A stretch of 64,000 nucleotides of DNA from Rubripirellula sp. (GTDB taxonomy: Bacteria > Planctomycetota > Planctomycetia > Pirellulales > Pirellulaceae): positions 1,632,001-1,696,000 of the forward strand of contig OZ244207.1 of NCBI GenBank assembly GCA_965216875.1, given 5' to 3'. Positions 50,037 to 57,560 of the stretch are shown here, in pieces. Below the pieces are notes generated by a model, which had not been told where the DNA came from, did no database searches, and saw only the letters and a list, made by a program, of their open reading frames with translations. The translations under genes and the position numbers were made by a program. Every line of letters begins with the position of its first letter. Within the stretch, counting starts at the first letter, position 1.

Positions 50037-50434
50037 GCCCTTCCGGTAGCTACGCTCGCCAGAGCGTGGGAGAGTGGTGAACGCCTGCCAACAGATACCA
50101 CCGTCTGGCGACGGTAGCTACATGACACTGCCACGTATGAGCTCTTCCGGTAGCTACGCTCGCCAGAGCGTGGGAGAGTGGTGAACGCCTGCCAGCATAT
50201 TCCACCGTCTGGCGACGGTAGCTACATGACACTGCCACGTATGAGCTCTTCCGGTAGCTACGCTCGCCAGAGCGTGGGAGAGTGGTGAACGCCTGCCAGC
50301 ACATTCCACCGTCTGGCGACGGTAGCTACATGACACTGCCACGTTTGAGCCCTTCCGGTAGCTACGCTCGCCAGAGCGTGGGAGAGTGGTGAACGCCTGC
50401 CAGCACATTCCACCGTCTGGCGACGGTAGCTACG
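50036..50434. repeat. About 3.8 tandem 104-bp REPIN-like units
   Basis: Units at 50041, 50145, 50249 and 50353: GGTAGCTACGCTCGCCAGAGCGTGG-spacer-CCACCGTCTGGCGACGGTAGCTAC-linker, nearly identical. Confidence 0.95.
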
Positions 50435-50532
50435 TGCGGGCTGAACGTTCCGAACCTGATTGGCTCGACTTGTGTCGCAACCCGACATCGGCGCACCATT
50501 GCGTTTCTTCTTTTTTTGCGATTGGTGCAACC

Positions 50533-51273
50533 ATGGGCACATCACACGGAAACTTTGTCAAATACCCCCGAACGCCGCACCTGTTTGGCGCGAGAGGGAC
50601 AGACGATGACAAACGCCTGGGCGAAAAACCGTCTCTCAAGCTAATCAGTGACGACTCGCTGATTGTTGAAGAGAAGATCGATGGTACGAATGTTGGCATT
50701 CACTTTGCCGACAATGGCGATCTCGTTTTGCAGTGTCGCGGACATCTGATCACCGAAGGCATGCACCCGCAGTACGATTTGTTCAAACAGTGGGCCAATG
50801 CGAAACGCTTCGATTTGGAACAGTGTCTTGAGAATAAATTCATTCTGTTTGGCGAATGGGTGTATGCGAAACACTCAATACGTTATCGAAAACTCTCTCA
50901 CTACTTTTTCGAGTTTGATATCTACAACAAAGAGTCCGAGTTGTTCCTGACGCTCGATGATCGGCTTGAACTACTCGAGGATACTGGCATCGAAACCGTT
51001 CCCATTGTGCATCGCGGCGCGATTGGTCGCGATGCACTGCAGTCACTGATCGGGCCGTCTCAGTTTTCAAGCGAGTTCGATAACCCCACGACCGGTCAAG
51101 TCGACCATCTGATGGAAGGGCTCTATGTGCGTACGGAATGCGACGGTTGCGTTTCGGCACGTGCCAAAATGGTACGACCCGAGTTTGTAGAAAAAGTCAA
51201 ACAAAGCAACCATTGGCAGCACGAGGCGATGGTTCCCAATGAACTCGCCGAGGGCGTGGATATCTGGACATGA
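50533..51273 (+). CDS. ATP-dependent RNA/DNA ligase-family nucleotidyltransferase
   Basis: KYPRTPHL, motif [17 protein letters not shown], IIIa FEFDIY, IV MEGLYVR, V AKMV; no OB domain. Confidence 0.9.
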
Positions 51274-52382
51274 ATTGGCAACAGCTAAGTCGATTGAGCC
51301 TTGACGGCGTCATTGATTGGTGCGAATCGCAAGATTGGTGCCAAGCGATGTCGTCGTGCGCTCAGGATACGGCTTGGCATGCCGAGGGGGACGTCTGGAC
51401 TCACACCAAGATGGTCTTTCGGCAGTTGAGTGAGCTTGAGGGCTGGAGGGAACTTCCTGAGACGCATCAGACGATCCTGACCTTTACAGCCCTCTTTCAC
51501 GATTCAGCCAAACCGGCGACGAGCCAGGTTGATCCGGAAACGGGCAAGATTCGATCACCCAACCACGCCGTCCGGGGTGAGCAGCTGGCACGGAACGAAT
51601 TGCGGCGTCTGGAATGTGACCTTTCCACGCGGGAGCAGATCGCGAAGCTGGTTCGTTTTCATGGTCGGCCCGTCTTTTTACAGGAGCGGAGTGAACCGTC
51701 TCATGAAGTTGCCCGGATGTCGTGTTACGTTTCGAATCGACTGCTGCATCTCTTTGCGCTGGCTGATCACCGCGGGCGCACCACCGCGTCTTCTGACCGC
51801 TCCGAAGAAAACCTGGCTTACTGGTTGCTGCTAGCCGAGGAGCTTGGCTGTGCAGATGATGTGTTTGCTTTTGCGAATGACCACGCGCGGTTCTCGTTTT
51901 TCCGCCAGCAAGAACCGAACCTGCACTACGCTCCGTATGCTGCGCGGTCTTGCCGCGTCACGATGATGGCAGGCGTTCCTGGGACGGGAAAAGACACTTA
52001 CCTGACCCGAAACCACGAGGACTTGCCGGTCGTTTCGCTTGACAACATTCGCCGCGAGATGAAAGTTGATCCGACCGACGAACAAGGTGCGGTGATTCAG
52101 ACCGCTCGTGAGCAGTGTCGCGAGTACCTACGCGGAAAGAGGTCGTTCGCGTTTAACGCGACGAACCTGTTGAAGGTGACCCGAGCGCGTTGGATTGACC
52201 TCTTCGCCGATTACGACGCCGAGATCGAGATCATCTATCTCGAGCCACCGCTGCATCGAATCCTGACACAAAACAAGAATCGGGATCACTCTGTGCCCGA
52301 GTCGGTGGTTCGCAAGATGTTAGGGCGGGTCGAGCCGCCAACGATTGCAGAAGCGCACCGAGTGAGATGGATCGCGCAATAA
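51270..52382 (+). CDS. HD-domain phosphoesterase fused to a P-loop polynucleotide kinase (HD-Pnk-like)
   Basis: [11 protein letters not shown]...LFHDSAKP...H...[27 protein letters not shown]...VPESVV. ATGA overlap with the ligase gene. Confidence 0.9.
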
Positions 52383-53095: not shown

Positions 53096-53270
53096 GGGGA
53101 TTCTCCTGAAGAGTTGAAAGCGTTTGTCAGCCTAATAGGTCCTATTGTGCGCGAAATGGGGCGCGCAAATGTGCTCGCCGTGCATTTGGGTGGTAGGGAT
53201 CTCGCCATTGGTTGTGTTCATGCGTACAATCCCCGCTCGGTTTGTTAACACTTGATGAGGAATGGGAAAG

Positions 53271-53621
53271 ATGGCGAAAAAGATCGACTGGAGCTATCAC
53301 CGCAAGGGCTGAACGTCCTGCACTCGCGCGCAAGAGTTTCTTGCGCCCCGCAGCGTGTCCACCAAGGAAGAGGTGGATGCAAGAAAAGTTCGCATGGCAG
53401 GTGACGAGGCACTTGGGCTGCTCGAAGGGATGAGCAAACTCGTGGTTGCCAAAGGGAAAAAGGTTACCACGGTGAGTCTGAAAAAGGACCGCCCTGAGGA
53501 TGACGAGTTGATCAAAATGATGCTCGGCCCAACAGGCAACCTTCGCGCCCCTACAATGAAGGTCGGCAAAACCGTCCTGGTGGGTTTCAACGATGATCTC
53601 TACCAGGAAGTGTTTGGTTGA
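53271..53621 (+). CDS. ArsC/Spx-family thioredoxin-fold probable selenoprotein (UxxC)
   Basis: MAKKIDWSYHRKG-TGA-TSCTRAQEFL is in frame with the 53355 ORF. TGA at 53310-53312 occupies the first Cys position of CxxC. C-terminal GNLRAPT...LVGFN. Confidence 0.85.
53318..53353 (+). promoter_or_regulatory. Candidate bacterial SECIS hairpin
   Basis: GCGCAAGA-GTT-TCTTGCGC stem-loop beginning 16 nt after the UGA, with a possible lower CTGC/GCAG stem. Confidence 0.6.
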
Positions 53622-53866: not shown

Positions 53867-54343
53867 TTGCGTGTTTTAAAGTCAGCAATAGCCGTGGGGC
53901 CCCACGCTCCGAAAACTAAGATGTCGACAAATACTACACGATCGCCCTCGTTTGCTCAGCCTGTCTTATCGGTTGAGAGTGAGCAGCAAATGAACATTCC
54001 AGCACAGCGCATTCCATGGCTGAATTATTGCGAGACGGTTCGTGGCTGTTATGGGGGCGATGCCGTCGACTTAGAGCGTCAAATTGCCGTTGCCTTGCAG
54101 CAACTGTCGCATCATTCCTGCACCGAAACCATCATGGAAGTAAGAGCGTTATTGCGAGTCCGTTTGGCTCTGGCATCCACGCTGCAGGAACGTGCGCGGT
54201 TACGTAAGTTGTATGGCAGCTATTTGATCTTGTGGCCGGAACTGATGGAGCCAGTTGACGGATGCGCGAGCTTGCTTGGTGACGTGACGAGTGAAGTGTC
54301 GGATCATGCCACGCGTTTGCTCAGCCCCCACGGGACTAACTAG
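53867..54343 (+). CDS. Hypothetical protein
   Basis: Open frame, helical Leu-rich; start could be 53921 or 53990; overlaps the convergent gene by 8 nt. Confidence 0.45.
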   Translation: MRVLKSAIAVGPHAPKTKMSTNTTRSPSFAQPVLSVESEQQMNIPAQRIPWLNYCETVRGCYGGDAVDLERQIAVALQQLSHHSCTETIMEVRALLRVRLALASTLQERARLRKLYGSYLILWPELMEPVDGCASLLGDVTSEVSDHATRLLSPHGTN

Positions 54344-57300
54344 ATTGGTTCGCTCGGCGATTCTCACCATATTTTTGAGCGAGTTCGTGCATTCGCCGGG
54401 CGCCCAAGCGAGTGGCGATGTCCCAGAGGTTTCTTGAGATTACGATCTCTTTGCTCAGGATCTCTCGTCTGCACATCGAAAGCGGAGACCGTACACGGTT
54501 GGCCAAAGGGTCAATTTGGAATTCGGACCAACGTCGTGTTCTCTTGCCTTTGAGTGTTGCGGAGAAAATGATACTTCCCTGAAAGCTCTTGCCATCCAGA
54601 TCACGAAACGTATGCACGCGACGGTTTTCGTGTGAATCCGGGATGATCGTTTCAAAATAGTGGGCAACGTGTTCACAAATCAGCAGCAACTCGTCAGTTG
54701 CCGCACCTGGATGGGGTGTCGCGCGCGCGGGTTCAACATTTTCAAAAGCTTGATTGATCAACGCGCTTTCCGGTCGCCTGTCGAGCAGGCGTGTCCGAGC
54801 ATGGAAGTCTACAAATACTGCGAAGGCGCGATCGACTTCGCTGTGATGCATGTCCTCAAATTTTGTCATTGCGTGCCGTGCAGCATGTTCGAATAAGTCC
54901 GAACAGTTATGATCGACAATTCTCTCCTGAAGAATGTAGTGACGTCGAAAATACTTTCTGAACCAGCGGTAGCAGTCTTTTTGCAGGTCTCCCAGGTCGC
55001 GTGTGTCCGTGGGGAAAACGTTCCCTAAAGCACGTTGCCGCACACTATCCCAAGAGCTTGCGTTGATGAGTTCGTCGTAGGGGACGTTGTGCATCACTTG
55101 TGACACGTAATAGGTCGCGATGAACACCGTAACATAGGTTTCGAGAGCAGCATAAAACAGGTCTCTTGGATGATTGCGATTGGCATAGGGACTGAGAGAC
55201 AGCTCTGCAAATGTGACACGCCAAAATAGTCTCCAGTCGCCCTTGAAAACGAACAAGAGCACCATGCATTGAACGAAAAGCTCTTCTTGGCGACTCCAAA
55301 GCGCGAGTTGTTGGCTGCGCGTTAGATCTGCGGCCGAGTTAGGGAGTCCGCGTGGTGTTCCGTAGCATTCCGACACCGTGTGAAAGCCTTCATGCAAGCA
55401 TTCCAGGTAGCCGAACCCGTTGAAGAGGGTAGAAAAGTCGAGGCGGACACGAGTCAAACTTGGATAGGGGGCATCCTCGGGGGTTCGCGGGCGTCGACGC
55501 ATTTGACTGCAGATCACGCTTCGCGAGAGCAGCGTTCGAGGATTTTCAGACAGCTCCAAAATGCCCCCAAGACGCGATCGAACGTAACGCTGATCCAATG
55601 CGCGAACGACGCCTATTGAACACTTTAGTGCCGAGTCGGCACAGCGAATGTACTTTGCACAATTGGTTTGCCAGCCATATCGCGAGGCGTCGCTTGAGGA
55701 ATGCGGATAGATCCGACTTCGAAGCGTTTGCCAGAACGCTGCGATATTGACTTGCAACTCTTCGACTATCAACTCTTCCGAGAAAGCGCTCCGTTGGTTG
55801 GGAGTTAGCTGGTCAACCCAGGCCATCAGGTCGACAGTGAGGATCTCGTAAAAGGTCGCCAGCCCGTCGTACATGTCGACCACTTGATGCGCGACGCTAT
55901 GATCAGAAATCAGCAACGCGTATTCTTCAAAAAACGAGATGATCGCGCGTCGCAACGTACGCGGTAGTTGTAGCTTCTTCAACGACAGAGAGAGTTTCGA
56001 CAGCTCGAAACCGGGGGAATCATCAGGCAGTGCGCGATCGTAGCTGAACAAACCTTGCCCAATCTCCCAATAGTATTTCAGCAACTCCGGAGAATCGCCG
56101 CCGGACGGTACTTGATGCTGGCCCAAGAGCGACTCGACGTACTCGCGTTGCGTCAAAGGGATTGGAACGGGCAAACTCAAGACGCTATTGAGCCCTAAGA
56201 CTCCCGTCTCACTGGCGCCATCCTGGATCGGATGACCATTCGGATAGAGTCCAAGCTGGCGATAGGCTGCGCTGCTCAGATGGATCAAACTCCGAGTCGG
56301 CATGAATGTTCGTTGGACATAAGAGCCGTGATCGCCCTCTCGTTCACCGTCACGCTCTCGTCGGCTACGTGGCCAAGTGAAGATCAAATCACGAGCACCA
56401 ACCGTGCAGACGGCATAGTCTTTGCCGGTATTGAGATTGATTAGATCCGGGCGATTGACTGCGTCGCTTTTGACTAACTGGTGATGGACTCGGTTGATTT
56501 CTTGGTAAGCGCCAGGCACAAGTGACACGTCAACGCGCGAGTCGACAACACCTTGCACTTCAGATTGATCCGCATCGGCAGTGAACACTTCTGGTGAAAC
56601 GCCCATGGTTGTATGCGTCGCGCTAAGCAATTGCGCATTACCGAGCTGAGAGATCGCTCCTGCTTGGCCTAGCTCGGAATCGTCGACGTACTTCTGGCCA
56701 AATGGCGACGCACGAATCATGTCGTCAAGCGGAAGGAATGGACGTAGGTCAGTCAATCGCAACTGGCGCAGGGCGAGCAGGACGGATGCAATAACCGAAT
56801 AATTGCGTCCGAAGAACACCATTGCGATGTCTGTGTCACCCTGGCCGTGCAGCAGAGCGATCTTATTCGAGTGGTTGACCGTGCTGGTCGCCGGTAACGC
56901 AACCGAGTCAAATTCCTTCTCTAATGCGATGAGCGTCTTTGCTGTCGAGACGGCAATCAGCTTCGTGATCGCTTCGGTCATTCGCTGCCCGCCTAGGTGT
57001 TCTGCGACTCCAGACAGGTTGATTTCAGCGACTGCAGCGAGCGGAAGTCCAGTTCGTGATAAGGAGGTTTCGTTGGCACCAGGACTGAACAAAGATCTGA
57101 AGTCGCAAAAGACCGACAGGCGGCCTAGTTCGGTTGATGTCAGAAGGTCTTTGAGGGATTCTCGTATGCTATCGACCCGAGGACAGAACCCGAGAATGTG
57201 CTTGTCGCAGTTTGCGTTGGCCTTAATCCCTATCGTTGTTGCCGCGTCGACTTCATCTACCAGACAAAGTCCGATTGCATCCGAGTTTCCAAAAACGGAA

Positions 57301-57560
57301 AAGTAGCAGGGGCGATAAAGATAGTCGTCAAAGCGAGTTTCGGCCTCTGTATATTCGATCCCGTGTTTCTTTTGCTCCGCGATGAACTGATCCTGGCGAT
57401 CGACCAGTGTTGCTCGGTACGCTGCGATCGACTCAGAAAATCGGCTTGGTCCGCTTCCAACAAAGGGATCGTACTTATTCGTCTTTCCCCTTAACCGCAC
57501 CGATGTTGCGTCACTGAACCACGTAATCAGTGCAGCGTAGTCCTCGTATTGAAGATTCAT
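54336..57560 (-). CDS. Large hypothetical protein with HExxH metallopeptidase-like motif
   Basis: 1074-aa uninterrupted ORF; LHEGFH followed by EELF. Confidence 0.8.
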   Translation of the reverse strand: MNLQYEDYAALITWFSDATSVRLRGKTNKYDPFVGSGPSRFSESIAAYRATLVDRQDQFIAEQKKHGIEYTEAETRFDDYLYRPCYFSVFGNSDAIGLCLVDEVDAATTIGIKANANCDKHILGFCPRVDSIRESLKDLLTSTELGRLSVFCDFRSLFSPGANETSLSRTGLPLAAVAEINLSGVAEHLGGQRMTEAITKLIAVSTAKTLIALEKEFDSVALPATSTVNHSNKIALLHGQGDTDIAMVFFGRNYSVIASVLLALRQLRLTDLRPFLPLDDMIRASPFGQKYVDDSELGQAGAISQLGNAQLLSATHTTMGVSPEVFTADADQSEVQGVVDSRVDVSLVPGAYQEINRVHHQLVKSDAVNRPDLINLNTGKDYAVCTVGARDLIFTWPRSRRERDGEREGDHGSYVQRTFMPTRSLIHLSSAAYRQLGLYPNGHPIQDGASETGVLGLNSVLSLPVPIPLTQREYVESLLGQHQVPSGGDSPELLKYYWEIGQGLFSYDRALPDDSPGFELSKLSLSLKKLQLPRTLRRAIISFFEEYALLISDHSVAHQVVDMYDGLATFYEILTVDLMAWVDQLTPNQRSAFSEELIVEELQVNIAAFWQTLRSRIYPHSSSDASRYGWQTNCAKYIRCADSALKCSIGVVRALDQRYVRSRLGGILELSENPRTLLSRSVICSQMRRRPRTPEDAPYPSLTRVRLDFSTLFNGFGYLECLHEGFHTVSECYGTPRGLPNSAADLTRSQQLALWSRQEELFVQCMVLLFVFKGDWRLFWRVTFAELSLSPYANRNHPRDLFYAALETYVTVFIATYYVSQVMHNVPYDELINASSWDSVRQRALGNVFPTDTRDLGDLQKDCYRWFRKYFRRHYILQERIVDHNCSDLFEHAARHAMTKFEDMHHSEVDRAFAVFVDFHARTRLLDRRPESALINQAFENVEPARATPHPGAATDELLLICEHVAHYFETIIPDSHENRRVHTFRDLDGKSFQGSIIFSATLKGKRTRRWSEFQIDPLANRVRSPLSMCRREILSKEIVISRNLWDIATRLGARRMHELAQKYGENRRANQSS

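Follow-up and report, generated by a model that had tools for sequence, protein, structure and literature searches.

An ArsC-like gene with an in-frame UGA in a Rubripirellula genome: a predicted selenoprotein of family NF041106, and candidate distant SECIS hairpins in its relatives

The window analysed here, a stretch of 64,000 nucleotides from the genome of a Rubripirellula sp. (contig OZ244207.1), contains an ArsC-like gene on its forward strand (53271..53621, +) which is interrupted by an in-frame TGA at codon 14 (53310..53312). If this UGA is read as selenocysteine (Sec), the frame yields a product of 116 residues with the motif U14-T-S-C17 and ends at a terminal TGA (53619-53621). The fourth residue of the motif, Cys17 (TGC, 53319..53321), is the sole cysteine of the protein, is predicted to act as the resolving cysteine and is present in every one of the 97 homologs. 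The start codon ATG at 53271 is directly preceded by GGGAAAG (53264-53270) and has a Shine-Dalgarno-like GAGGA 9 nt before it (53257..53261); purine-rich stretches, as judged by eye, precede the homologous start codons as well. Because two in-frame stops lie just upstream of the ATG, a start of the frame much before it is impossible. All these elements stand where a previous sequence-only reading of the window had placed them, and the 88-aa ORF starting with GTG at 53355 (translation table 11) indeed contains no redox motif. The same reading had described a CxxC-type start and a C-terminal RP..GYN-like motif; the former is present as U-T-S-C, whereas the latter actually reads R-A-P...GFN, compared to R-R-P...GYN in Spx, with an Ala that is invariant in 97/97 homologs. 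Scans for promoters (one site vs. 0.5 by chance) and terminators (two vs. 1.1) were uninformative.

An ORF of 45 aa and a gene of the DUF2752 type are divergent from the gene. Convergent with it lies a 1074-aa ORF (54336-57560, −) for which Pfam gave nothing at E ≤ 1e-5. Further upstream, an RNA ligase gene is followed by an HD/AAA_33 (polynucleotide-kinase-like) gene (50386-52382, +), resembling an RNA repair pair, and three near-identical repeats of about 100–140 nt each precede the RNA ligase gene (approximately 50050-50545). Among the 98 homologous loci described below, each neighbour cluster recurs at 15 loci at most, and the gene neighbourhood gave no functional lead.

The host is represented by a complete genome of 8.26 Mb. 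Genes for SelA, SelB and SelD were detected over the curated cut-offs, and a tRNA-Sec with anticodon UCA is also present, which completes the set of selA, selB, selC and selD. The genes selB and selA stand side by side with selD, which is long (723 aa) and apparently a fusion (L154, G000:C1:323500-331500), and selC is located at a distance, at 7784436. TGA is not generally reassigned in this organism, because W7 of the ArsC-like gene is coded by TGG and 1310 of the 3457 long frames of the genome end in TGA. At least four other host genes contain a UGA at the position of a redox-active Cys. Three UGA genes similar to peroxiredoxins, redoxins or deiodinases are found at G000:C1 6090313-6090681 (−), 1772056-1772424 (+) and 4481535-4481927 (−), the last of them without a clear hairpin, either near or far. 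Another gene (L150:185-547 on G000:C1, TGA at 5006761, +) is predicted to encode a lipoprotein in which a heavy-metal-binding domain similar to CopZ/MerP is combined with the motif M-V-U-G-G-C; it has a G-loop hairpin 18 nt 3' of the TGA, passes no NCBIfam cut-off and is possibly an uncatalogued selenoprotein. The genome also contains two large tRNA gene arrays with about 48 genes in all (G000:C1 approximately 591000-608000 and 628000-632600), and tRNA gene clusters in planctomycetes are mentioned in PMC4807772. A tRNA with anticodon CUA called by ARAGORN ("Pyl", G000:C1 3282034-3282109) is probably false or degenerate.

An ArsC-like gene occurs in 21 of 61 related genomes, with TGA in 16 and TGC in five of them. 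After adding 80 further loci and removing three duplicates, we obtained 98 distinct homologous loci, whose codon at the Sec14 position is TGA in 81 cases and a Cys codon (TGC or TGT) in 16, while one locus (L051) is frameshifted; all counts out of 97 refer to this set without L051. Both TGA- and Cys-containing orthologues therefore exist, and most members do not carry TGC. The titled homolog records cover Planctomycetota, Myxococcota, Pseudomonadota and others. The region upstream of the TGA, which had been named as critical for the selenoprotein assignment, is well conserved, with a mean identity to the query of 76% over residues 5-13 compared to 48% over residues 15-116. Database entries of relatives are truncated in the manner predicted from the sequence: 102-aa proteins begin directly after the TGA site in the seven rows checked. 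That plain ORF callers truncate the ArsC-like UGA gene is the practical point here.

The selA gene was found over the cut-off in 16/16 TGA-containing relatives, in four of the five Cys-containing ones and in 43/61 genomes of the order overall, and tRNA-Sec was detected in 13 of the 16 TGA relatives, which are represented by draft assemblies. Of the 77 other loci, 50 were covered, and here selA passed the cut-off in 35/38 genomes with TGA vs. 2/11 with Cys; these counts are not independent because most of the Cys genomes (9 of the 11) form one clade. In the assembly with the frameshifted locus, selA is fragmented as well. When the columns coding for the hairpin were left out of the tree, the Cys forms required six changes (five to seven over the bootstrap, at least four forced), as far as a tree from few columns with an unsettled bootstrap allows counting; a first tree was the result of a quick search only. 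Since no Cys form keeps the near hairpin described below, the loss of the UGA and the loss of the hairpin would have coincided several times.

The reading of the DNA itself was compared with other sequence data. In a near strain sequenced in another study, 11 of 701 places differ, but the TGA and the hairpin are unaffected, and the contigs of a run that is possibly the source of this DNA show no difference. A sequencing error at the TGA thus appears excluded, as far as contigs can show.

Downstream of the TGA, we confirmed the perfect 8-bp hairpin that had been noticed before (53328..53346, +), whose arms GCGCAAGA (53328-53335) and TCTTGCGC (53339-53346) enclose the loop GTT (GUU, 53336-53338); the stem starts with the 16th base past the TGA, and the loop begins 23 nt past it. 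We compared this structure by a custom script with a bSECIS model taken from section 5 of PMC13188914, which demands a loop of 3–9 nt, a stem of 4–16 bp, a G at loop position 1 or 2, a spacing of 16–37 nt and an energy of at most −7.5 kcal/mol. The query hairpin falls within all of these limits (a 3-nt loop with G at its first position, an 8-bp stem, a spacing of 23 nt and −10.8 kcal/mol), and compared to synonymous-codon shuffles it yielded a p value of 0.015. Taken alone, it is only moderately unusual, as seen from folding z values (−1.85 for a 51-nt and −2.88 for an 80-nt stretch), and an equally good model hairpin occurs in 33 of the 1310 TGA-ended long frames of the host genome. A genome-wide scan for the motif plus a hairpin returned 92 candidates, almost all of them noise by eye, which indicates that a hairpin alone is not diagnostic. 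Rfam gave no matches in the window at E ≤ 1.

The comparison across the homologs was more informative. In 59 of the 81 TGA genes and in none of the 16 Cys genes, the best hairpin under the model is of the G-loop type, with the loop 22–23 nt past the codon. A single hairpin register for all 81 TGA genes was tried and rejected, as only 53.6% of the cells paired and sliding by +1 gave a better value (60.5%); the misfit was resolved by assuming two registers one base apart, with 29 genes each, and a third group. In the register of the query, 94.8% of the cells pair, four of seven pairs show two-sided changes and 0/500 shuffles equal this result (30 rows, including one borderline gene), compared to 29–64% of cells paired in slid controls; these pair counts are inflated and partly circular, because the hairpin classes were defined by pairing. 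The Leu codon within the 3' arm is CTT in 28/29 genes, compared to 19% of the Leu codons genome-wide and 0/16 Cys genes. Synonymous shuffles were beaten at p ≤ 0.05 by 25/81 TGA genes and 1/16 Cys genes, the low proportion among the former resulting from the peptide itself, which builds much of the stem. We regard conservation across homologs, and not the hairpin alone, as the decisive evidence that the structure is more than chance.

Based on the Sec machinery of the host, the TGA at 81 of 98 loci and a covarying hairpin that agrees with the SECIS model, the ArsC-like UGA gene almost certainly encodes a selenoprotein of 116 residues, as had been proposed from the sequence. Following established bacterial Sec decoding, SelB carrying Sec-tRNA would bind the G-loop hairpin and insert Sec at codon 14, and the terminal UGA would terminate translation.

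The third group consists of 22 of the 81 TGA genes, all from Planctomycetota, which have no near hairpin (loci L052, L056, L058-L062, L065-L067, L070, L081, L087, L091, L092, L094, L095, L097, L100, L105, L106 and L111), and 21 of them occur in genomes with selA. Instead, a G-loop hairpin is found 48–54 nt after the UGA in 22/22 of these genes vs. 1/16 Cys genes and 9/29 and 5/29 genes of the two near-hairpin classes; counting only distant hairpins at −2 kcal/mol or better leaves none in the Cys genes and five and three in the near classes. With a structure derived from the same rows, 91.5% of the cells of the distant hairpin pair and six of eight pairs show two-sided changes, compared to 20–61% paired cells in slid controls. 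Synonymous shuffles were beaten at p ≤ 0.05 by five and at p ≤ 0.2 by 15 of the 22 genes. Another hairpin folds between the UGA and the distant hairpin and would loop out the extra distance in these relatives. In the window's gene, a second predicted hairpin of 9 bp with the loop AAGGAAGA (53355..53380, +) lies at the site of the distant G-loop hairpin of the sister clade.

We extended the comparison to other UGA genes of the same lineage, using 40 of 57 listed TGA-containing AhpC/TSA matches from nine of ten distant-hairpin genomes. A near hairpin is present in 25 of these 40 genes, by which a lineage-wide long SECIS spacing was rejected. Of the other 15, 11 have a hairpin at 38–70 nt (six at 59–60 nt and five at 38–40 nt), compared to 3/25 of the genes with a near hairpin. 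The G-loop hairpins at 59–60 nt have stems of 8–10 bp and belong to peroxiredoxin-like (L164, L186, L189, L193) and thioredoxin-like genes (L168, L177), so the six cases represent two gene families and few independent events. In the coding background of the host genome, a hairpin at 48–62 nt occurs in 202 of 3457 windows. Taken together, a bacterial SECIS element may perhaps also work approximately 50–60 nt 3' of the UGA, outside the consensus range of 16–37 nt, a tentative proposal that concerns the relatives and not the window's gene. PMC13188914 states that the consensus does not hold for some SECIS elements of bacteria, without describing a distant geometry of this kind; a full-text literature search returned no title on long-distance bacterial SECIS elements, which, as a matter of titles alone, does not establish the geometry as unpublished. 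If the proposal is correct, an entire class of selenoprotein genes escapes SECIS-based searches, and predictors of bacterial selenoproteins as well as engineered Sec insertion could use a looser spacing rule. As a separate observation, 57 of the 150 listed AhpC/TSA-family matches from ten Planctomycetota genomes (G073, G074, G078, G079, G080, G087-G089, G091 and G092) contain one in-frame TGA, so that the selenoproteomes of these organisms would seem unusually large.

The family to which the protein belongs is already catalogued. The 116-aa protein matches NCBIfam model NF041106, "ArsC family (seleno)protein" (ArsC_rel_Se_1), with 143.5 bits (cut-off 85) over profile positions 1-107 of 107, and searching the genome with the model gave 135.9 bits with one TGA read through. 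The Pfam ArsC model (PF03960) scored 31.3 bits, with a cut-off of 24, and these profile matches, together with the fold matches presented below, support the link to the ArsC/Spx superfamily that the sequence-only reading had drawn. Planctomycete members are named "ArsC family (seleno)protein" at NCBI among the 120 of 1385 matches listed. A 2026 review (PMC13188914) lists NF041106 as "Arsenate reductase-like protein" with a UxxC motif, citing a paper of 2008 on the Global Ocean Sampling data, whose table (PMC2398784) contains "Arsenate reductase 2" (cd03032, UxxC, 42 sequences). From this citation and the shared motif, the two would appear to be the same family; "ArsC-like" selenoproteins were listed as early as 2006 (PMC1794560). 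The hidden novelty that the earlier reading had implied is thus not given, since a curated model exists, NCBI names the members and a UxxC family has been predicted since 2008. We are nearly certain that the window's gene is a genuine selenoprotein gene and a member of this known family; for the gene itself, there is little new beyond the fact that a catalogued selenoprotein family was called correctly. The selenoprotein table of PMC4807772 names no ArsC-like entry in the 12 of 14 supplements searched and has one entry labelled "hypothetical", and ArsC is not mentioned in the accessible part of bioRxiv 10.1101/2022.07.06.499078. Our literature search returned no biochemical data for any member of the NF041106 family, and PMC13188914 describes the functions of such selenoproteins as largely uncharacterized.

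To interpret the protein, we compared AlphaFold models based on the alignment of 97 rows (pLDDT 89.2) and on the 16 Cys homologs (pLDDT 91.7). Both show a thioredoxin fold with the redox motif at the start of helix 1 and an inserted lid, which contains a β-hairpin at residues 56-69 with strands 56-61 and 64-69 and the conserved A-K-G-K-K as its turn. This basic turn (A60-K-G-K-K-V65, 53448..53465, +) has Gly at position 62 in 97/97, Lys or Arg at position 61 in 97/97 and Lys at position 63 in 96/97 homologs. The loop before the conserved Pro of the thioredoxin fold (G86-P-T-G-N-L-R92-A93-P94, 53526..53552, +) contains G86, G89, R92, A93 and P94 as invariant residues (97/97). For the query model, YffB, Spx, NrdH-redoxin and glutaredoxins tie as fold matches (Z 6.7–7.7); over both models, and including glutathione transferases, the Z scores range from 6.7 to 8.8. 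TM-scores to Spx and YffB reach only about 0.5 to 0.55, suggesting that the lid differs from those of the two proteins. Glutaredoxin profile models remained far below their cut-offs with the query.

Because key motifs of both ArsC and Spx fail and the neighbours are not conserved, we favour a stand-alone oxidoreductase: the product is probably a selenol/thiol redoxin of the thioredoxin fold which is recycled by thioredoxin reductase and acts on an anionic substrate or partner. As the fold suggests, the selenolate of Sec14 would attack the oxidised substrate, Cys17 would resolve the intermediate to give a selenenyl-sulfide, and this would be re-reduced by the thioredoxin system; these chemical steps are taken over from what is generally known about proteins of this fold. 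An anionic substrate or partner is likely held by the invariant basic residues R11, K61, K63 and R92. Thioredoxin reductase is barely over the cut-off in the host (343.7 vs. 343.45), and glutathione synthetase (gshB) gave no match over the TIGR01380 cut-off in its genome.

An Spx-like transcription regulator with a selenium switch, in which oxidation of U14-C17 would enable binding to RNA polymerase and promoter DNA, is an unlikely alternative in view of several mismatches. Spx structures are among the best profile matches (E 3.6e-9), the model of the Cys homologs aligns with Spx at Z 8.8 (rmsd 2.8, 88 residues), with YffB (8.2) and glutathione transferase (8.0) within 1, and the redox motif contains T-S as in Spx, but the scores against the Spx family models are far below the cut-offs (TIGR01617, 25.3 vs. 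75.05; NF002459, 20.3 vs. 123), and both structure models have the β-hairpin 56-69 where Spx has helix 4. In Spx, R60, K62, R91 and K15 contact the DNA backbone, R92 reads a base, G52 contacts RNA polymerase's α-subunit C-terminal domain (α-CTD), and Tyr263 of this domain is needed (PMC8501982). The four backbone-contacting residues align with K61, K63, R92 and R19 of the query, whereas the base-reading R92 aligns with the invariant Ala93 (R-A-P-T vs. RPI). The query has a Gly at the position of G52, yet this is the case in only 24/97 homologs, and Tyr263 is present in 0/24 RpoA C-terminal domains, the host having Asn (one more locus gave no match). The gene stands alone and codes for a basic protein (net charge +5), as would suit a regulator. 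Predicting a complex from the natural alignment of Cys homologs and planctomycete RpoA C-terminal domains was uninformative (score 0.00, mark 0.32). Two additional α-CTD-like domains outside rpoA are encoded at G000:C1 3650676-3651182 and 4937114-4937329.

We also consider it doubtful that the protein is a Se-based reductase of arsenate or another oxyanion, in which a basic pocket would bind the oxyanion, Sec14 would attack and Cys17 would resolve. The Pfam ArsC score agrees with such a function, as do H10 (78/97 homologs), the invariant R11 and R92, the basic residue at position 61 and the putative arsenate reductases 3rdw and 3f0i among the fold matches, and the gene is the only PF03960 match in the host genome. 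However, Ala precedes the conserved Pro in 97/97 homologs, where classical ArsC would have Arg94. Mapped via Spx, the first two positions of the ArsC Arg triad (R60, R94 and R107) would correspond to Lys61 and Ala93 of the query. The catalytic motif HX3CX3R of ArsC (PMC3169414) also fails, since the query has Thr at position 18 and the eight residues most often seen there do not include Arg. No arsenic-resistance family was found among 110 flanking ORFs (six belonging to the window, and 104 of the 128 selected at 52 loci), a check that covered the nearest ORF of at least 100 aa on each side and included many ORFs without a Pfam match. The lack of a glutathione synthetase match over the TIGR01380 cut-off argues against this function as well, and the four genes of the LMW-phosphatase family in the host could include a separate arsenate reductase. 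The "arsenate reductase" label of the NF041106 family is thus probably wrong by the sequence evidence, and the protein is not a classical ArsC, nor does it belong to Spx proper.

That the TGA is a real stop, due to a nonsense mutation or a sequencing error, with the 88-aa downstream piece or nothing being made, is highly improbable: the seven 102-aa database proteins beginning behind the TGA site and the frequency of such hairpins (33/1310) would agree with it, but the same TGA is present in 81 loci from several phyla, the peptide upstream is strongly conserved and the near strain is identical at TGA and hairpin.

The preferred redoxin can finally be set beside the known systems. With the glutaredoxin-coupled ArsC of the E. 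coli type and the UxxS selenoproteins from the Sargasso Sea (TIGR00014), it has in common the PF03960 match and, in most members, a His four residues before the first Cys or Sec; these proteins are of the CxxS or UxxS type, whereas the window's protein is of the dithiol type (UxxC), does not contain HX3CX3R and has no ars genes among the neighbours checked. YffB (PDB 1rw1, 2kok) is the top wide fold match of the query model (Z 7.7, rmsd 4.9, 94 residues) and is presented in PMC3169414 as a protein of the ArsC fold without the Arg triad and a proposed thiol reductase. The YffB described there has one Cys and binds glutathione, in contrast to two redox residues in 97/97 members of the NF041106 family and a host in which gshB was not found over the cut-off. 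Spx and MgsR (B. subtilis Spx; PDB 6ghb, 1z3e, 7f75) share the C/U-T-S-C with which helix 1 begins, a thioredoxin fold into which a lid is inserted, the G-[FY]-N near the C-terminal end and several aligned basic residues; the window's protein differs from Spx by scores below the cut-offs, R-A-P instead of R-R-P-I, an unconserved equivalent of G52, a host RpoA without Tyr263 and a lid predicted as a β-hairpin. From the NF041106 family no difference was found, and the window's gene agrees with it in the full-length profile match and the UxxC motif.
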